A stretch of 64,000 nt of DNA from Candidatus Pacearchaeota archaeon (GTDB lineage: Archaea > Nanobdellota > Nanobdellia > Pacearchaeales > GW2011-AR1), in NCBI GenBank assembly GCA_023136775.1, contig JAGLQO010000001.1:47488-111487 (forward strand). Reading direction: 5' to 3'. The position numbers and the translations under genes were made by a program. This document shows, piece after piece, positions 4,756-63,616 of the stretch (positions are counted from its first letter, which is position 1; the number at the start of each line of letters is the position of its first letter). Under the pieces are notes generated by a model. That model had not been told where the DNA came from. It did not search any database and saw only the letters and a program-made list of their open reading frames with translations.

Positions 4756-4860
4756 TGGGCGTGGCAAGATTTGAACTTGCGACCTCAAGCAGGGGTGGAA
4801 ATATTTTGGTCTGGTTATATTTCGTCCATAACTTGTGCTCTACTACTGAGCTACACACCC
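4756..4860 (-). tRNA. tRNA-like gene with ~35-nt insertion in the anticodon arm
   Basis: acceptor GGGTGTG/CACGCCC, D arm GCTC-AGTAGTA-GAGC, T arm GCAAG-TTCAAAT-CTTGC; anticodon stem halves CAAG..CTTG are separated by an insert with its own 7-bp hairpin GAAATAT/ATATTTC. Confidence 0.6.
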
Positions 4861-18607: not shown

Positions 18608-19096
18608 TTATTTAGGGTCATTATTAACAAACCCAAAAACAAACCCAAAAACAAACCCACTAATAAGCCCATAAACAAGTCCATAAACAAGTCCATAAAC
18701 AAGTCCAAAAACAAGTCCAATAACAAGCCAACCAACAAGTCCAACAACAAGTCCAACAACAAGCCCAATAACAAGACAGCTAACAAGCCCATTTTCTCCA
18801 ATCTTTTTCAACTTCCTAAATCCGCCTTTCTTCCAAGCGTAAAAACAAATTGCAGTTGAGACAATAAGGCAATATTCAATTAACAAGACTGGAATAACCA
18901 GAAGAGAAGATAGTTCTTCTGAGGAATAAAATTCCTTAAACCATTCAATGATTAGAAATCCCAGTATAATTGAGGCTGTGATGGAAATCAAACCAAGGCT
19001 GAATCGAATTGCATCTGCTAAATTTTTGCATCTGCAATAACCAATTGTAATCATAACTGTAATAATAACAAGTCCAATTGTAAAGATAATGTTCAT
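18608..19096 (-). CDS. multi-pass membrane protein, paralogue family 1, with G-L-V repeat tail
   Basis: start at MNIIFTIGLV behind AAGGAGAAAA; AWKKGGFRKLKK motif; C-terminus GLVVGLVVGLVGWLVIGLVFGLVYGLVYGLVY. Confidence 0.6.
   Translation of the reverse strand: MNIIFTIGLVIITVMITIGYCRCKNLADAIRFSLGLISITASIILGFLIIEWFKEFYSSEELSSLLVIPVLLIEYCLIVSTAICFYAWKKGGFRKLKKIGENGLVSCLVIGLVVGLVVGLVGWLVIGLVFGLVYGLVYGLVYGLISGFVFGFVFGFVNNDPK
18620..18795 (-). repeat. 12-nt-period tandem repeat inside the CDS
   Basis: ACAAGTCCATAA/ACAAGTCCAACA/ACAAACCCAAAA units readable in the sequence; encodes the (G-L/F-V-x)n tail. Confidence 0.8.
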
Positions 19097-24933: not shown

Positions 24934-25001
24934 TTAATTAAGAATATGTTCTTACAAGGAATTCGAATTAAGATTTGAATTCCTTGTAAGATATTAATTC
25001 T

Positions 25002-25562
25002 TTATTCAGAATACTCATAGGTAGTAGAATCCCCATTCCAGTCAGTCACCTTAACCAACAACCCATCCCCATATTCATAGGTAATATATAGTCCATCCCA
25101 GTAAGTCGCCTCAACCAGCAACCCATCCCTATATTCATAGGTAGTAGAATCCCCATCCTCGTCAGTCATCTTAATTAACAACCCATCCTCATATTCATAG
25201 GTAGTAGAATCCCCATCCTCGTCAGTCATCTTAATTAACAACCCATCCTCATATTCATAGGTAGTATACCATCCATTCCAGTCAGTCGCCTCAACCAGCA
25301 ACCCATCCTCATACTCATAGGTAATATATAGTCCATTCCAGTCAGTCTTTTTAACTAACAACCCATCCTCATACTCATAAGTAACAGAATATCCATCCTT
25401 GTAAGTCTTTTTAACCAGCAACCCATTTTCATACTCATAGGTAATAGAATCCCCATCCTTGTTAGTTTTTTTAATGGTCTTAATTCCCGGCTTGCATTTC
25501 AGCATAGGATTTTCATTAAGTAAAACTTTCCAAGATGTTTCTTTGTTATTAATTTTTTCCAT
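25002..25562 (-). CDS. YD-like 20-aa repeat protein
   Basis: eight tandem units of the form tYEYEDGLLVkxTDxdGdsi; period and the Y-x-Y-E/D-x-G-L-L core resemble RHS/YD repeats. Confidence 0.6.
   Translation of the reverse strand: MEKINNKETSWKVLLNENPMLKCKPGIKTIKKTNKDGDSITYEYENGLLVKKTYKDGYSVTYEYEDGLLVKKTDWNGLYITYEYEDGLLVEATDWNGWYTTYEYEDGLLIKMTDEDGDSTTYEYEDGLLIKMTDEDGDSTTYEYRDGLLVEATYWDGLYITYEYGDGLLVKVTDWNGDSTTYEYSE
25010..25450 (-). repeat. 60-bp tandem repeats inside the CDS
   Basis: adjacent units at 25141-25200 and 25201-25260 are identical as printed; other units differ at a few positions. Confidence 0.85.
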
Positions 25563-27521: not shown

Positions 27522-27990
27522 AGCTATGTAAATCCACTTGTAAAATTTCGCGATTTTTTTCGCATTTTAATCTCCTTTTTGTTGGGTTGGGATTTTTTCT
27601 TTTAATCCCTCAGTTTCTTTTTGTCTTCTGATGTGAGTTTTGGACTGGGTGTGGTAGGATTTGAACCTACGACTTCTATATTTTAGTATAGTACTCTACC
27701 TCTGAGCTACACACCCTGTGAAAATATTTTTTCAATTAGAGATTTTCAATTAGATGTATAAGTCGCTGCGAAAATTATCATATGTTTTTTTGCATTTCAA
27801 TTCATTAAATCGGCTTAATTTAATTTTTGAAGATAATACAATTTGGATAGTTAGTTTTTTTAATCATAATAATAATAAGTATTAGAAAACCAATTTTTGT
27901 CAATGAATTTTTCATAATATTCTCCTGTTTTAACTGCTTTAATAAGAATCAGATTCTTGTAATTTAAAGTCAGCTTTATTATTTTACTCA
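27522..27990. repeat. duplicated ~470-bp segment, copy 1 (offset 732 bp)
   Basis: aligns with 28254..28715, including the tRNA-like gene, its trailer and an upstream mini-ORF region. Confidence 0.85.
27646..27716 (-). tRNA. tRNA-like gene with 6-nt anticodon loop (copy 1)
   Basis: acceptor GGGTGTG/CACACCC, D GCTC-AGAGGTA-GAGT, stem CTATA/TATAG enclosing CTAAAA only, T GTAGG-TTCAAAT-CCTAC. Confidence 0.5.
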
Positions 27991-28253: not shown

Positions 28254-28715
28254 AGCTATGTAAATCCACTTGTAAAATTTCGCGATTTTTTTCGCATTTT
28301 AATCTCCTTTTTGTTGGGTTGGGATTTTTTCTTTTTATCCCTCAGTTTCTTTTTGTCTTCTGATGTGAGTTTTGGGCTGGGTGTGGTAGGATTTGAACCT
28401 ACGACTTCTATATTTTAGTATAGTACTCTACCCCTGAGCTACACACCCTGTGAAAATACTTTTTTAATTAGATGTATAAATCGCTGCGAAAATTATCATA
28501 TGCTTTTTTTATTTTTTTATTTCAATTTATTAAATCGGTTTAATTTAATTTTTGAAGATACTGCAGTTTGGATAATTAGTTTTTTAATCATAATCATAAT
28601 CATAAGCATTAGAAAACTAATGTTTGTCAATGAAATTTTCATAATATTCTCCTTGTTTTAACTGCCTTAATAAGAATCAGATTCTTGTAATTTAAAGTCA
28701 GCTTAATTATTTTCT
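28254..28715. repeat. duplicated ~470-bp segment, copy 2
   Basis: see 27522..27990. Confidence 0.85.
28378..28448 (-). tRNA. tRNA-like gene with 6-nt anticodon loop (copy 2)
   Basis: same as 27646..27716 apart from D-loop differences (AGGGGTA). Confidence 0.5.
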
Positions 28716-35771: not shown

Positions 35772-36377
35772 TTAATCTTCTTGATTTTGAAAAATAGGAT
35801 GTTTTATTACTCTATAATAATTTCCTTCTTTTGAGTCGTTTTCAAATCCTAGAGATTCAAATAGCAACATTGACTTGTAATTATCTTCGTGAATTTTTGC
35901 TATAGTTGGAATACCTACATTTGTAATATTATTAATGAGTTCTTTTGCATGTCCTTGATTTCTGTTGTTTTCGTTAACTGCAATTATTCTAAGATATCTT
36001 CTGAATCCATTGTCTTCATAGGCAGCGGCAGCAACTATATTGTCTGATGTTAAATTATTTCTTACTATAATACTATTTTCATCTTTTTCTAGGCTTGATA
36101 CAACATGGTATCCATGATCTACTCTTGAAAATAATGAATCTATTTCTTTTTCTTCTGTTGTTTCATAAGGTCTTGTCTCGAAGTTATCGAGTCCAGCATC
36201 ATTAGTATCGTTATTAATTGCAAGATATTTGTTTGTAAGTTCTGGTGTCCATCCGCCATTTTTTTCTGCCTTTTCTATTATAGAATCTAAACTTTCTATA
36301 AATATATTATGATATTTATCTTTATAAAGTTTACTATTTGTTGTTTCTGTGAAGTAGTGACACTTATTTGAAAACCA
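35772..36377 (-). pseudogene. GNAT-family N-acetyltransferase-like ORF without a usable start codon
   Basis: I translated 201 open codons between TAG (36380-36378) and TAA (35774-35772); contains RIIAVNENNRNQGHAKELI (acetyl-CoA motif A-like); no ATG/GTG/TTG until 27 codons before the stop, so missing from the ORF track. Confidence 0.55.
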
Positions 36378-36456
36378 CTATATCTCTAGAAATAAATTGA
36401 TCTGGACGAGATTCTAAAATTGGTTTTATATAAACTTTCAATCCAGTTTTTTCTGC
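36367..36456. repeat. 90-bp direct repeat, copy 1 (detached copy of the last 30 codons of the methyltransferase gene)
   Basis: 89/90 identical to 37354..37443 by direct comparison; the single difference is synonymous (TAT/TAC). Confidence 0.9.
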
Positions 36457-36505: not shown

Positions 36506-37333
36506 ATGGAAGATGGAAAGAAGTTAGTCATTTTTCAAGATAAGAAGATAAGAAGAATTTGGCATAATAATGAATGGTATTTTTCAGTAAGTGATATTAT
36601 AGCGGTTTTAACAAATAGTATTGATCCTGTAGCATATTGGAGAAAATTAAAGCAAAGGCTAAATGAAGAAGGAGATAAAACCGTGACAAATTGTCACGGT
36701 TTGAAAATGCTTGCTCCAGATGGAAAATTAAGATTTACAGACTGTGCAAATACAAGATCTCTTTTCAGAATAATACAATCTATTCCTTCAAAGAAAGCTG
36801 AACCATTTAAGCAATGGCTAGCACAAGTGGGATATGAACGAATCGAAGAAATTCAAGATCCAGAACTAGGGCAGAACAGAATAAAAGAATATTATCAGCT
36901 TAAGGGATACCCAAAAGAATGGATTGATAAAAGACTTCGTGGAATTGCAATACGACAAGAACTAACAGATGAATGGAAAAATAGAGATATTAAGATGCAA
37001 AAAGAATTTGCAATTCTGACTAACGAAATTTCTAAAGCAACATTTGGTAAAACAATTGGAGAATATAAAGATTTTAAGGGACTTGATAAAGAAAATCTAA
37101 GGGATCACATGTCTGACTGGGAACTTATTTTAACAATGTTCGGAGAAAAAGCAACAACTGATATAACAAAAGAAATTAATTCTAGGGGATTTGAAGAGTG
37201 CCAAGATTCTGCGAAAGAAGGTGGAAATGCCGCAAAAGAAGCAAGAGAAAGCGTAGAAAAACGTTTGGGAAAATCAGTTATTTCTAATGAAAATTATTTA
37301 TCGAAACAAAAAGAAAATAAGACGTTAGAATAA
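36506..37333 (+). CDS. BRO-N (Bro/KilA-N-type) domain protein
   Basis: N-terminus LVIFQDKKIRRIWHNNEWYFSVSDIIAVLTNS is typical BRO-N; A/T TATA-like box upstream. Confidence 0.7.
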   Translation: MEDGKKLVIFQDKKIRRIWHNNEWYFSVSDIIAVLTNSIDPVAYWRKLKQRLNEEGDKTVTNCHGLKMLAPDGKLRFTDCANTRSLFRIIQSIPSKKAEPFKQWLAQVGYERIEEIQDPELGQNRIKEYYQLKGYPKEWIDKRLRGIAIRQELTDEWKNRDIKMQKEFAILTNEISKATFGKTIGEYKDFKGLDKENLRDHMSDWELILTMFGEKATTDITKEINSRGFEECQDSAKEGGNAAKEARESVEKRLGKSVISNENYLSKQKENKTLE

Positions 37334-37350
37334 TAAAACTTTACAATTTT

Positions 37351-38430
37351 TCATTTGAAAACCACTATATCTCTAGAAATAAATTGATCTGGACGAGATT
37401 CTAAAATTGGTTTTATGTAAACTTTCAATCCAGTTTTTTCTGCAATTTTTTGAGCATCTGTATGAAAGTCTCTAATAGTTGGAAATGTAATTGCTATATT
37501 TGCTTTTGGTTTTTTTACTTTTGCTAGTTTAGACAGAATTGGAATCATATAAGCTTCAAAGTTTCTAATAATTTGTTTTGCTTCATTATCATTTGGTTTC
37601 TTTCTTAAAACTTTTCCTAGTGGAGTTTCGGTTGCGATTCCTGAAAATTGTAAATCAGGAGTTTTTCTTGAGTCTTTATTTTCAATGGTATACTTTGAAT
37701 TAAATTTGTAATTTTCTTTCATCCATTCCAAATTTGCAATAGCATCAATTGTAGCTTGTTTATCTTTATCTATTCCATGAACATTAATTCCTTTAATTAG
37801 AGCTTCTTGTAATATCCCGCCAACTCCACAAAACGGATCAAGCATTAAATCTCTAGGCTTAGCTCCAGACAGGTTAATTAAAATCTTAGAAAGTCTAGGT
37901 GAAATAGCTAAAAGCTCTCGTCTCATTGGTTTGTTCATATCACGATTCTTAACGTCTTTGCTGTCATATTCTTGCGTAGAAGTTCCAAAGTAAGTAACGC
38001 CAGCATCTTCATAACAAAATATGTAGAATTCAGCCTTAGGAATATTGATTTTACTTCCGTCTTGCATTTTCAATTGTTTGCTTCCGTGCTTTATCGTAGC
38101 CTTTTTCTTTCGTTCTTTAAATTTGTTTTTTAGGAGTTCTTCATCAATATTTCCAAAAATTCCGTAAGAAAATTTGTCTGCGGGAACAATTTCAATAGAC
38201 TCTAAATGTTCTTCTAACTTTTCAGGAGTCCCCTCAAAAGTAATTTCTCCGAGCCACATAATCCCACCAAATTCTTGAATGTTAAATTTTTCACCTTCAT
38301 TAGTTTCAATAATTAAAATATTATCTCTAAACATAATTTCTTTGTGCTCTCTATTTCTAGTTTTTAGAAATTCTAGTATTTCTGCCCTAGAAAGTTCAGG
38401 GTTACGACCGAGGATAAAAAAGGTTTTCAT
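37351..38430 (-). CDS. THUMP-like/SAM-dependent RNA (tRNA guanine-N2) methyltransferase, Trm11/Trm-G10-like
   Basis: SAM motif LMLDPFCGVGGILQEALIKG; family size and archaeal context fit. Confidence 0.7.
   Translation of the reverse strand: MKTFFILGRNPELSRAEILEFLKTRNREHKEIMFRDNILIIETNEGEKFNIQEFGGIMWLGEITFEGTPEKLEEHLESIEIVPADKFSYGIFGNIDEELLKNKFKERKKKATIKHGSKQLKMQDGSKINIPKAEFYIFCYEDAGVTYFGTSTQEYDSKDVKNRDMNKPMRRELLAISPRLSKILINLSGAKPRDLMLDPFCGVGGILQEALIKGINVHGIDKDKQATIDAIANLEWMKENYKFNSKYTIENKDSRKTPDLQFSGIATETPLGKVLRKKPNDNEAKQIIRNFEAYMIPILSKLAKVKKPKANIAITFPTIRDFHTDAQKIAEKTGLKVYIKPILESRPDQFISRDIVVFK
37354..37443. repeat. 90-bp direct repeat, copy 2 (3' end of the intact methyltransferase gene)
   Basis: see 36367..36456. 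Confidence 0.9.
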
Positions 38431-39296: not shown

Positions 39297-39341
39297 GTTA
39301 ATTGATTGAAATTTCACTTTAAAAAGCTTGTGATTAAAAGA

Positions 39342-39540
39342 TTGACATTTTCTTCTGGTGAAGAAAATCGTCAGAGGAAATTTTGCAGAATTTCTAGATT
39401 CCAGACCCCTTACCGATTTTATCGCAGATGGTCTGATATTGTGAGGGAATTTATTTTAAATTCCCGTTGTTCGAAGTGTTTGGATTGAGCAAAAAAAAAT
39501 AATCTTAAAAGTCGAGGTGAAAGTCCACTGAAAATGTCAA
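39342..39540 (+). ncRNA. structured RNA-like element, family copy A
   Basis: four hairpins (39347-39368, 39377-39394, 39402-39435, 39445-39465), plus the 11-nt terminal pairing 39342-39352/39530-39540; homologous to 56463..56700 and 63490..63604. Confidence 0.5.
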
Positions 39541-39587
39541 TTTTTCTTTACCCAAATCTTTAAAAAGCAAAATTGTTCATTATCTTT

Positions 39588-40233: not shown

Positions 40234-40425
40234 ATGGAATCACAAATGATAAACGTCGACGCCGATGATTTAAGGCAGCTTATATCGGATGTTAAGTTAA
40301 TGAAAGAAATTCTTTTGTCAAATGGATTGTACTCTGAAGATGAACTTAGTGATTGGGCAAAAAAAGAGTTAAAGGAATCAAGAGAAGAGAATGAGGAAAA
40401 TTATGTATCTCTTGAAAATTTATGA
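40234..40425 (+). CDS. putative antitoxin (63 aa, acidic)
   Basis: 4-nt ATGA overlap with the downstream RelE-like gene. Confidence 0.5.
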   Translation: MESQMINVDADDLRQLISDVKLMKEILLSNGLYSEDELSDWAKKELKESREENEENYVSLENL

Positions 40426-40670
40426 ATTTCGAAATAAAATTTTCATCTAGGTTCGCCAAATTTCTAAGAAGTTTACCTAATAATATTCTAAGTAGAATAA
40501 AAAATAAATTTGAAATAGTTTCTACAGATCCATTTAGATATCTTAAACATTTTGAGGGGGATGGGTATAAACTCAGGATTGGAGATTTCAGAGCAATTAT
40601 TGATGTCGACAAGGATAGAAATATTTTATTTGTTAGAATTTTTGATAGAAGAGGCAGAATTTACAAATGA
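40422..40670 (+). CDS. RelE/ParE-family toxin
   Basis: YKLRIGDFRAIIDVDKDRNILFVRIFDRRGRIY matches the RelE core. Confidence 0.7.
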   Translation: MNFEIKFSSRFAKFLRSLPNNILSRIKNKFEIVSTDPFRYLKHFEGDGYKLRIGDFRAIIDVDKDRNILFVRIFDRRGRIYK

Positions 40671-45528: not shown

Positions 45529-45906
45529 AATAACAATTTCTATTTTAGATTTATAGTTCTTTCCTGTATAGTGGATTTTCTCTTAGGTGTTTCAAATATG
45601 AACTATTATCGTCTATTTTTTGTCTTTGGATTTCGTTATAATTTTTCATGTACCCATTAGCAAGTATTAGAGAAATTTCCCTTATTGCCGAAATAGTATT
45701 TTGATATTTAATATCAGAATCTGTGGCAATTTTTTTTCTGGTAAATCCTCTTCAGCAATTTTAATTAATAATTTAGAAGCTTTCGTACTAAGTCTTTCTA
45801 AATCACTCTTTTCTTCTTTGTCAAATTTTATACAATAACAAAGAATAGATTCTTTATATTTTTGCCTATTCCATAATTTTTTAAACGTATTTTATCTGAC
45901 TTTCTT

Positions 45907-56418: not shown

Positions 56419-56462
56419 AATTAGAAATAATCTGTTTGACTTTATAAGGATTTATGGGGTAC

Positions 56463-56700
56463 ATTGACATTTTTTTCTGGTTTCCGCCTCACTGGCATGC
56501 TCTTCTGCGGAGGCACAAAAATTGTTGGAGAAAATCCACACGCGGCACTTATGCACACCTCGGCTTGTTTGAATTCTGGGGCGATTTTTAGATTCCGAAT
56601 CGCTTACTACTAAGGCCCCAGATGGTTCGATATATGTGAGGGAATTTCGTCATTTGACGCGCCCAGTTACGAATCAACGAAGGAGAAATTCCCGAGTTGG
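56463..56700 (+). ncRNA. structured RNA-like element, family copy C (expanded)
   Basis: same helix order as copy A: AAAATC(56531-36)/GATTTT(56583-88), TAGATTCC, CGAATC(56596-601)/GGTTCG(56624-29), GGGAATTTC(56640-48)/GAAATTCCC(56685-93). Confidence 0.5.
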
Positions 56701-56710
56701 GGAGTGGATG

Positions 56711-56971
56711 TTAAATTTCTAATTCGGTATCTTCCCCTAAATTGTCTTGCCAGTTTTTTATTAAACTTTTTTTGAAATTTTGAAATTCTAATATTTTTTT
56801 ATTAATTAATTCTAAGTTGTGCATATTTTTACCTATTTTTTCTTTTGACGATTGAAATTTTTCTATAACTTTTTCTATATCGTTGTGAATCTTTTCTATT
56901 TTTATTTTTAATCTATTTCTTTCTTTTCTGTATTTTGTTTTTATTTCCTGATTGCTCAATATCTTTTCCAT
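56711..56971 (-). CDS. coiled-coil protein (86 aa), co-oriented immediately downstream of mcm
   Basis: ORF starts 2 nt after the mcm stop. Confidence 0.5.
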   Translation of the reverse strand: MEKILSNQEIKTKYRKERNRLKIKIEKIHNDIEKVIEKFQSSKEKIGKNMHNLELINKKILEFQNFKKSLIKNWQDNLGEDTELEI

Positions 56972-59235: not shown

Positions 59236-59502
59236 ATGGAAATGGCAACAACAACTCTTAGTTCAAAAGGACAAATCGTAATCCCGAGCATCATGCGAGT
59301 GGGGTTTAAAGAAGGAGAAAAATTATTATTAATTCAAGAAGACGATTCTATTATTTTGAAAAAAGTTTCCTCTCTTCAAGAAAATTTCAAAGATGATTTA
59401 GAATTTGCTAGGCGAACTAGAGAGGCTCAAGAAAGTATAGATGAGGGCGAGTATATAGAAGTAGATTCTGATAATCTGGAAGCAGAAATGGATAAATGGT
59501 AG
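59236..59502 (+). CDS. AbrB/SpoVT-family antitoxin
   Basis: TLSSKGQIVIPSIMRVGFKEGEKLLL swapped-hairpin motif. Confidence 0.7.
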   Translation: MEMATTTLSSKGQIVIPSIMRVGFKEGEKLLLIQEDDSIILKKVSSLQENFKDDLEFARRTREAQESIDEGEYIEVDSDNLEAEMDKW

Positions 59503-59744
59503 TAATTCGTTTTTCAAAAATATTTACAAATAAGTTTTCTAAAATGAAAGATGAGTTGCTAAGAACCAAAGTAAAAAAGCAGATAAGGAAAATAACAGAC
59601 AATCCTAAAGTTGGAAAGCCTATGCGAAATATTAGAGTTGGAACTCGCGAGCTTTATATTTTCCCATTTAGATTATCATATAGATATGTAGAAAATGAAA
59701 ATATGGTGGAAGTTTTAGATTTATATCATAAAAAACATCAGTGA
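59496..59744 (+). CDS. RelE/ParE-like toxin
   Basis: 7-nt overlap with the antitoxin; GTRELYIFPFRLSYRYVENENMVEVLDLYHKK. Confidence 0.6.
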   Translation: MVVIRFSKIFTNKFSKMKDELLRTKVKKQIRKITDNPKVGKPMRNIRVGTRELYIFPFRLSYRYVENENMVEVLDLYHKKHQ

Positions 59745-61475: not shown

Positions 61476-61736
61476 TTAGCTATATACTTCATACTCAATC
61501 CTTCCAAGTATGTTTTTGACTTCATCTCTTTTTTTGTCCTTGCAATAATCGTAAGGTCTACTTCCACCAAGAGCAATATTAGAAGTATAAAACCAATCTA
61601 TTACATTTATTGATTCTTCGAAGACTTCTTTCATCTCTGTAATTAAATCATTCCCAGCAGTTTTTTTCATTTCTTTATTTAAAAAATTATCTAAGCTTTT
61701 AAATTCTGGTCGCTTGAGAATATCATTAATATCCAT
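61476..61736 (-). CDS. DUF2384-like (MbcA/ParS-type antitoxin C-terminal domain) protein
   Basis: WFYTSNIALGGSRPYDYCKDKKRDEVKNILGRIEYEVY matches the DUF2384 core pattern; no adjacent RES-type partner. Confidence 0.55.
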   Translation of the reverse strand: MDINDILKRPEFKSLDNFLNKEMKKTAGNDLITEMKEVFEESINVIDWFYTSNIALGGSRPYDYCKDKKRDEVKNILGRIEYEVYS

Positions 61737-63400: not shown

Positions 63401-63489
63401 AAATATAAAATTATAAATTAAATTAAAAACTTATCGTAGAAAATTGGAAAGAATTTTTTATTAATTACATAACAAGAGTTCCATTAAAC

Positions 63490-63604
63490 GGGAATTTAGA
63501 ATAAATTCCCTCATTATATTGAATTATCTGCGACAAAGTCGGTAAGGAATTCAGAAATAAAATCTTGTGTGGATTTTTACGAAGAAAATTTCACCAGAAA
63601 TTTT
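63490..63604 (-). ncRNA. structured RNA-like element, family copy B
   Basis: minus-strand order AAAATTTC-TGGT-GAAATTTT, AAAATC/GATTTT, TGAATT/AATTCA with inner CGAC-TTT-GTCG, GGGAATTTA-TTC-TAAATTCCC. Confidence 0.45.
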
Positions 63605-63616
63605 TTCGATTTATAT

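Follow-up and report, generated by a model that had tools for sequence, protein, structure and literature searches.

A three-copy orphan family of structured non-coding elements inserted in the intergenic spacers of a Pacearchaeota genome

What is a short intergenic sequence that recurs three times in one archaeal genome, with its unpaired joints invariant while its stem sequences turn over? Three such copies lie in a stretch of 64,000 nucleotides from a Candidatus Pacearchaeota archaeon (the window, meaning the whole stretch of DNA that was analysed). To our knowledge, the non-coding RNAs and non-autonomous mobile elements of DPANN archaea have hardly been described. Copy A spans 39342..39540 (+ strand, 199 nt), exactly as a previous sequence-only reading had delimited it; that reading had cut the other two copies short (63490-63604 and 56463-56700), and we place the whole units of copy B at 63433..63610 (- strand, 178 nt) and of copy C at 56463..56715 (+ strand, 253 nt), the 3' limit of copy C being approximate. 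The G+C content of copy C is 0.47, higher than the ~0.30 of the window.

Copy A occupies the spacer between the divergent L35Ae (with L10e behind it) and RpoL genes. Copy B comes immediately after the L31e stop codon and precedes the promoter of a Tag glycosylase gene, and copy C has on one side a small ORF downstream of MCM and on the other the beginning of an RPA-like gene. With respect to its neighbours, copy B is in the sense orientation, copy C is antisense to both, and copy A sits between divergent genes. We also observed a toxin-antitoxin-type module 0.7-2.5 kb from each copy, at window positions 40234-40670, 59236-59744 and 61476-61736; these modules comprise a small antitoxin-like ORF with ParE/RelE, MazE/AbrB with ParE, and an Xre_MbcA_ParS_C antitoxin. 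In the closest relative (L084), those beside copies B and C are missing, which suggests that the same spacers gather accessory DNA.

All three copies follow one order of helices: H0, H1, H2 with its inner hairpin, and H3. All helices and joints quoted in the sequence-only reading are present in the DNA, although several needed redrawing. In copy A (+), pair counts and RNAalifold place H0, GACAUUUUCUUC-UGGU-GAAGAAAAU-C-GUC, at 39344..39372 and H1, GAAAUU/AAUUUC, at 39377..39394. H0 is longer than had been described, being a 12 bp helix with one bulged pyrimidine on its 3' side (C in copy A) and a UGGU loop in copies A and B. Its counterpart in copy B is CGAAAAAAUUUC-UGGU-GAAAUUUU-C-UUCG, and copy C keeps the base of the helix with a bulged U. 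The joint UAGAUUC (39395-39401, +), reduced to AUUUC in copy B, follows directly after H1. Next comes the 6 bp H2 (CAGACC/GGUCUG, 39402..39435, +), which encloses an asymmetric internal loop, CCUUAC / CAGAU, invariant among the copies, together with the inner hairpin CGAU-UUU-AUCG. The sequence-only reading had given this hairpin for copies A and B, and copy C has none. The joint AUAU-UG-UGA and the 9 bp H3, GGGAAUUUA-UUU-UAAAUUCCC, together occupy 39436..39465 (+) and lead into a variable 3' domain (39466..39540, +) that ends in GAAAAUGUCAA (39530-39540). Runs of T5 follow copies A and B. The joint after H2 had been written as ATAT(T/A/-)(G/A)TGAGGG, with a shortened form; in copy C it reads ATAT-ATG-TGAGGG, which is one base longer, not shorter.

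The corresponding parts of copy B (-) are H0 at 63580-63608, H1 at 63559-63577, H2 at 63520-63553 and the joint with H3 at 63490-63519. In copy C (+), the base of H0 lies at 56466-56477 / 56514-56526, H1 at 56531-56536 / 56583-56588, H2 at 56596-56629, the joint at 56630-56639 and H3 at 56640-56648 / 56685-56693. Copy C carries three long insertions of its own on the same strand, a G+C-rich one of 32 nt (56482..56513), one of 46 nt (56537..56582) and one of 36 nt (56649..56684), and each falls exactly in a terminal loop, that of H0, H1 and H3, respectively. Of the 128 core positions, 17 belong to terminal loops, and by our own estimate the chance that three of three insertions would land there is ~0.002. 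A molecule that has to fold would be expected to take up insertions in just such places.

Short invariant strings mark the same core. The sequence TGAGGGAATTT occurs exactly three times in the 64-kb window, always in a copy. The exact pattern CTTAC-N11-CAGAT is found in the window only at the three copies with equal spacing, and its extension CTTAC-N11-CAGAT-N6-ATAT also keeps identical spacing in all three. Furthermore, the 3' end of each copy is complementary to its own 5' end. In copy A, UUGACAUUUUC (39342-39352) is complementary over 11 bp to GAAAAUGUCAA; in copy B, the 5' end AUCGAAAAAAUU faces the 3' end AAUUUUCUACGAU (63433-63445), with AUCG..AAAAUU opposite AAUUUU..CGAU; and in copy C, GGAUGUUAA (56706-56714) pairs with UUGACAUU (56464-56471) over 8 bp that include two G-U pairs. 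The terminal sequence of copies A and C (TTGACAT...) is unlike that of copy B (ATCGAAAAAATT...), and each is self-complementary within its own copy. Because the termini differ in sequence between A/C and B yet stay complementary, they co-vary, like a helix, with H0. The 5' strand is complementary both to its partner in H0 and to the 3' end, and can therefore pair with either.

Is this fold held by selection, as the sequence-only reading had proposed? We built an ungapped alignment, A5, in a manual register with every segment checked against the genome (128 columns, 37 pairs, 5 helices). Of the pair cells across the three copies, 94.6% were paired, and 17 of the 37 pairs showed changes on both sides (eight in H0, two in H1, five in H2 and one each in the inner hairpin and H3), a count taken on a structure that was read from the same three sequences used to score it, all from one genome. 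None of 500 shuffles reached the observed value on any of five measures. When the 3' partners were slid by 1-3 columns, pairing fell to 31-61% and two-sided changes to 2-4. RNAalifold, given the alignment alone, independently returned H0, H1, H2 and H3. The A-B core retains 84% identity over 61 nt, with the stems largely replaced. Covariation for a common secondary structure, the generic mark of a structured ncRNA, was therefore found on three sequences only, and it is unusually clean for that number. The copies are constrained to fold, and the proposal that selection keeps the helices paired is strongly supported.

A core covariance model, R1, was made from H2, the joint and H3. Scanned across the window with filters off, it scored copies A, B and C at 98.8, 97.4 and 49.6 bits, and everything else at ≤17.8 bits. 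We extended the search to ~82 kb of the same genome, that is, the window plus flanks of 9.2 kb and 8.7 kb (contig DAOWHN010000028.1, MAG GCA_030641395.1). The window takes up positions 47604-111603 of that contig, and pieces identical to it are present in the ENA ZHAN22-2 metagenomes; homologues of MCM, L10e and RpoL assign it to Pacearchaeota. R1 found no further copy in the two flanks, leaving three copies in the ~82 kb. A candidate degenerate copy at 45735 (TTTCTGGTAAA) was rejected, since all the other motifs are missing there.

We then compared the copies with described RNA families. At gathering thresholds, an Rfam 15 scan of the window returned only four tRNAs, and permissive scans of copies A, B and C gave a best E value of ~0.06, every match being far below its threshold. 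The sequence-only reading had recognised no known family, and at either threshold Rfam 15 has none to offer. RNase P, SRP, tRNA-like RNAs, riboswitches and self-cleaving ribozymes were rejected for lack of an Rfam match. Likenesses seen by eye, namely GAGGUGAAAGUCC to RNase P CR-I, CCUUAC/GAUGG to the 11-nt receptor and CUUACC to U1, are not conserved across the copies. Concerning the tRNAs of the window, two near-identical genes (27646-27716 and 28378-28448, -) score 62-64 bits with Rfam, and ARAGORN gives both an irregular, shortened anticodon loop ('anticodon aa'). Another (4756-4860, -) has a 40-nt insertion at the anticodon loop and is matched by Rfam with no ARAGORN call, and a gene with a four-base anticodon (1384-1480, -) is called by ARAGORN alone.

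Archaeal C/D-box sRNAs have a C box, RUGAUGA, near the 5' end, a D box, CUGA, near the 3' end, a k-turn, C'/D' boxes and guides of 10-12 nt. No RUGAUGA is present at any 5' end of the family, CUGA occurs near the 3' end in copy A only, and the best Rfam snoRNA matches reached 13-20 bits against thresholds of 30-35. Archaeal H/ACA sRNAs are recognised by a variable guide pocket, a k-turn or k-loop in the upper stem and an ACA box ~14 nt from the pocket. Here, H2 is followed by AUAU, the upper stem has 4 bp and a triloop with no G.A pairs and is missing in copy C, and the internal loop of H2 is not a guide because it is identical in all copies. No copy has the tandem G.A pairs that a k-turn at H2 or H3 would require. 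One may speculate about a pseudoknot, CCUUAC:GUGAGG, which could form in all copies with 4-6 bp including one G-U; being invariant, it offers no covariation, and it also partly competes with H3. A coding reading fails, as the 60-aa ORF over copy A is interrupted by a stop codon in copy B. Long direct repeats between the 5' and 3' ends, considered as att-like sites or terminal redundancy, were rejected as not significant, being matched by shuffles in 319/500 (A), 29/500 (B) and 116/500 (C) trials. We conclude that this is a genuine new orphan family, which belongs to the broad kind of small structured non-coding repeats or ncRNA genes but to no defined family.

The family is restricted to one lineage, with three copies as far as seen. 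The sequence-only reading had advised searching related genomes with a covariance model, and this yielded no homologue beyond the three copies: in ~820 kb from more than 50 related genomes, R1 found nothing above 16 bits (42 Pacearchaeota loci, 713 kb, and 13 closest-relative loci, 110 kb, the latter repeated with filters off). The exact core pattern, with 20 specified bases, had no match in 185,579 species genomes and none in IMG/VR. Its single metagenome match (L001, among 241 million records) lacks H2 and lies on a bacterial contig, and was set aside as chance; two matches of the H3 pattern in viral contigs both fall in G+C-rich coding DNA and were likewise attributed to chance. Searches with blastn against 83 loci, plasmids and phages gave no match. 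For a cellular ncRNA that serves a housekeeping function, such a lack of homologues elsewhere would be unusual, which counts against an RNA reading.

All three copies are missing at the orthologous sites of close relatives. At the site of copy A, two relatives whose RpoL is 89% identical and whose flanking DNA is ~95% identical (L104/L105), and a third (L106), keep the divergent L35Ae-RpoL pair and both of its TATA boxes without the element; there, 59 or 27 nt separate the boxes, versus 232 nt here. Where copy B lies, the L31e-Tag gap is 31-32 nt in L004 and L013 versus 216 nt here. Copy C is missing in the closest relative, L084 (MCM 86%), with an MCM-RPA gap of ~54 nt, and in many other relatives, several of which have gaps of ~50-80 nt. 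Across Pacearchaeota, the MCM-RPA spacer is in general a hotspot for insertions and varies in length between ~50 nt and 2.7 kb. Relatives also share a conserved block of ~30 nt, TTTATAAGtATTtATGAGATTGAGTTGAA, on the upstream side of the RPA-like gene, and several MCM genes of the L004-L045 and L084-L088 group carry intein domains.

The absence of all three copies from the closest relatives marks them as insertions and speaks for a mobile element. To judge from these comparisons, the copies appear either to have been inserted recently or to have been lost everywhere else. However, the copies differ from one another at 5/6 H2 pairs and 8/12 H0 pairs. Recent insertion combined with such deep divergence means that duplication in place followed by drift cannot produce the copies, and it points to an older, diverse pool, elsewhere in this genome or outside it. 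The best-supported conclusion is that the family is, probably, mobile or repeatedly supplied by horizontal transfer. Recent insertion at all three sites and deep, structure-keeping divergence between the copies are rarely seen together.

We next asked whether the folded strand would be RNA or single-stranded DNA. In favour of RNA, TATA-like boxes read from the sequence precede the 5' ends of copies A and C by 24 and 23 nt (TTTAAAAA, 39318..39325, and TTTATAA, 56441..56447; no strand assigned to either), copy B is sense-oriented in the 3' region of L31e, T5 runs follow copies A and B, and insertions occur at helix tips only. The G-U pairs (one in copy A, four in copy C) all lie on the strand given by the sequence-only reading and likewise count for a sense-strand RNA. 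The boxes themselves belong to neighbouring genes, however, and are kept in relatives without the element, so they are against RNA or neutral: TTTAAAAA is also placed to serve the leaderless L35Ae on the opposite strand, the other flank of copy A has a mirror TATA-like box for RpoL (39559-39566), and TTTATAA is common to the RPA-like gene on the opposite strand. Copy B lacks a TATA box of its own at the proper spacing. With mirror-image boxes on both flanks, promoters do not fix the orientation of copy A. By folding energy, the antisense strand is as good in copy A, where the two strands are equal, and better in copy B (antisense -39.2, z -3.5; sense -31.0, z -1.5); copy C folds no better than shuffles (z -0.8). 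With nearly every pair Watson-Crick (~95%) and two strands that fold about equally, the fold is compatible with RNA as well as with single-stranded DNA.

We tentatively favour a lineage-restricted mobile structured non-coding element that acts as a folded single strand, most likely as RNA in the given orientation, a reading that we hold at somewhat less than an even chance. Each unit of 178-253 nt would consist of H0, H1, H2 with its internal loop and tip hairpin, the AUAU-N2-3-UGA joint, H3, the variable 3' domain and the complementary 3' end. The helices would serve as a scaffold whose sequence is free to change while pairing holds and whose tips accept insertions. The invariant unpaired bases, namely the UGGU loop, the UAGAUUC joint (AUUUC in copy B), the CCUUAC/CAGAU internal loop and AUAU-N2-3-UGA, would be presented to a putative partner, most likely a protein. 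Copies would land in promoter-proximal or 3'-UTR intergenic spacers and survive where neighbouring promoters or read-through transcribe them, by analogy with the sRNA genes of Pyrobaculum (PMC6009581).

The strongest competitor, which we regard as unlikely though well worth weighing, is a non-autonomous transposon moved as single-stranded DNA by a Y1/HUH enzyme (an IS200/IS605-like PATE), or a small mobile repeat. The enzyme would read the shape of a hairpin, a bulged base and loop bases, so that stems could drift while they stay paired. H0 is indeed near-terminal with a conserved bulged base and loop, its pairs and those of the other helices are nearly pure Watson-Crick, and the two strands fold equally; close relatives lack all three copies, which makes them insertions, and they are intergenic, in both orientations and with no target duplication seen, as in IS200/IS605, PATEs and SMRs (PMC3119063). 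The mobilome of this genome also appears active, given an IS66 element in L097 and a Bro-N insertion. Against such a transposon, TnpA, TnpB, IscB, Y1_Tnp and OrfB_IS605 were all missing from the gene tables and Pfam scans of ~82 kb of the genome, and no transposase, reverse transcriptase or integrase was found near any copy or among the scanned ORFs of the window. The left H0 and the right H3 are dissimilar, whereas IS605-type ends are usually alike; the 5' and 3' ends are complementary, forming inverted repeats that PATEs do not have; and the left flanks (AAGA, TACA, ATAA) share no conserved target tetranucleotide. A five-helix core with four invariant joints and tip-only insertions also exceeds what end recognition would need. 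A MITE typically has many near-identical copies, shared terminal inverted repeats, a target duplication and a parent transposon, and the sequence-only reading had named many copies with terminal repeats and target-site duplications as the sign of a plain MITE. What we found are three copies in ~82 kb that are not near-identical, with termini that differ between A/C and B and match no autonomous transposon. Direct repeats are missing at the flanks of A and C, and copy B has TAA...TAA, which is at chance level in A+T-rich DNA, in a comparison where the spacers of relatives are too diverged to yield exact empty sites. Since the copies have no conserved termini in common and no duplication was seen, we consider a classical MITE of the DDE type unlikely. 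The sole transposon seen in the flanks of the source contig, the IS66 element (L097 6613-7978, about 1.2-2.6 kb beyond the window end on the same contig), has perfect 20-bp inverted repeats, CGTATCTGCTAACCAAAAAT, unrelated to the ends of the copies.

The remaining explanations are each less probable. The copies might be cis-acting intergenic modules, for example an insulator or roadblock, an mRNA 3'-end stabiliser or terminator, or an rRNA-mimic operator for ribosomal proteins: each adjoins a TATA box or stop codon of a neighbour, and two of the three lie beside ribosomal-protein genes (L35Ae/L10e; L31e). We consider this improbable, as the same genes lack the element in close relatives, the flanking genes have no function in common, the orientation to them varies from copy to copy, and known terminator or stabiliser hairpins are far simpler than this fold. 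Hardly more probable, and if anything a shade less so, are fragments of a virus, plasmid or other foreign replicon, such as a single-strand origin or packaging signal, acquired three times and non-functional in the chromosome. The G+C content of copy C and the outside or unseen diverse pool implied by deep divergence and recent insertion would fit such an origin, but IMG/VR, phage and plasmid collections gave no match, the three sites have no adjacent foreign genes in common, and the unit boundaries are equal in all three copies. Finally, hairpins are common in A+T-rich DNA and G-U intermediates are near-absent from the almost purely Watson-Crick stems of copies A and B, as one would expect if the likeness had arisen by chance among A+T-rich hairpin spacers or by mutational template switching in quasi-palindromes, with no function. 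That explanation is very improbable indeed: no shuffle in 500 reached the observed values, shifted registers fail, joints and spacings are invariant, and the three copies stand far above the ≤17.8 bits of the rest of the window in model score. Moreover, template switching cannot yield 5/6 and 8/12 changed pairs in copies younger than the ~5% divergence of their flanks.

How does the favoured mobile structured element compare with described systems? Integron attC sites are single long imperfect hairpins with R''/R' cores (GTTRRRY), found in cassette arrays beside an integrase. They are recognised in single-stranded, folded form, and there as here the structure, the bulged bases and a small number of unpaired positions stay fixed, leaving the stem sequence free to vary. 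Unlike attC, the copies have no GTTRRRY cores (GTTRRRY/RYYYAAC is lacking at the ends), form no cassette array, being single and dispersed, and have no integrase adjoining or nearby, and an attC assignment was rejected. MITEs, Correia, REP/BIME and ERIC elements are co-transcribed with their neighbours and occur as many near-identical copies with conserved terminal inverted repeats. The present family resembles them in being intergenic, hairpin-forming and found in both orientations, but near-identical copies, conserved terminal repeats, duplications and a parent transposon are unseen here. Elements of the IS605 type move through a single-stranded DNA intermediate. With PATEs and IS200-IS605 (IS1341-type) ends, our copies have in common the near-terminal hairpins, here H0, a heterogeneous non-coding family and, as far as seen, the lack of a target duplication. 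PATEs lack inverted termini, and their two near-terminal palindromes are similar to each other and to those of a resident IS605-type element (PMC3119063); the copies differ in that H0 is unlike H3, the ends are inverted repeats, no TnpA/TnpB was seen in ~82 kb, and no targeting tetranucleotide is present.

The SMR-A/B elements of Haloquadratum walsbyi are short and non-coding with no room for a transposase, and have inverted termini and no target duplication; they are strain-specific insertions that target other mobile elements, with tens of copies per genome that are >95% identical (PMC3119063). The copies described here are likewise short non-coding elements with inverted termini unrelated to known transposons and with no target duplication seen. 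They are unlike SMR-A/B in being three deeply diverged copies with compensated stems and differing termini, and in lying in promoter-proximal spacers instead of mobile elements. Pyrobaculum provides an archaeal precedent for mobile ncRNAs, with mobile C/D-box sRNA genes and MITE-like sRNA elements; its sRNA genes change intergenic site, are non-syntenic among close species, and adjoin or overlap neighbouring genes (PMC6009581). Intergenic sites, a lack of synteny with close relatives and proximity to neighbouring genes are shared by our family, whereas C/D or C'/D' boxes, a k-turn and guides are not, and the copies are multi-helical and 3-4x longer.

It is conceivable, though we think it rather unlikely, that these copies represent an undescribed class of archaeal mobile element, spread and selected purely as a folded single strand, with invariant joints in a multi-helix core and stems that evolve freely, and without transposase-type ends or duplication. 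Such a class might take the form of a retro- or recombination-mobile DPANN ncRNA gene with a protein partner and a larger, diverse pool in the source population. If a larger pool exists, the family would offer a practical way to study the spread of structured non-coding elements through reduced episymbiont genomes, and a ready covariation data set for a new RNA (or single-stranded DNA) fold; if only three copies exist, it is a curiosity.

Other repeats and mobile DNA were observed in and around the window. The IS66 element consists of a DDE_Tnp_IS66 gene (377 aa) and a 51-aa ORF. A 260-nt spacer beside it bears a loose by-eye likeness to the three-copy family that is not significant, and a fourth, degenerate copy beside IS66 (L097 6340-6600, minus strand) was rejected because its alignment scores were no better than those of shuffles. 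A 91-nt direct repeat (window 36366-36456 and 37353-37443, 99% identical, 987 nt apart) duplicates the 3' end of a UPF0020 methyltransferase gene (37351-38430), with a Bro-N domain gene (36506-37333) between its two arms. The Bro-N region looks like a recent integration that regenerated the end of the UPF0020 gene, with no integrase seen. The two near-identical tRNA genes sit in repeat units of ~730 bp (families D3, D5, D11, D18 and D20). At ~7200-29300, other conserved intergenic repeat families lie between paralogous genes, among them an 88-nt block in four copies (D4), a 79-nt block with a GGGAA..TTCCC hairpin in three copies, one of them beside tRNA-Lys (D6), and a G+C-rich hairpin, GCCCGATGAAAA...TTTTCATCGGGC, in three copies (D9). 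They may represent promoter or terminator modules repeated within a region of cassette-like or viral nature. Tandem repeats also occur within ORFs, at 18611-18790 with a period of 12 nt (12 copies) and at 24951-25535 with a period of 60 nt (7 copies).
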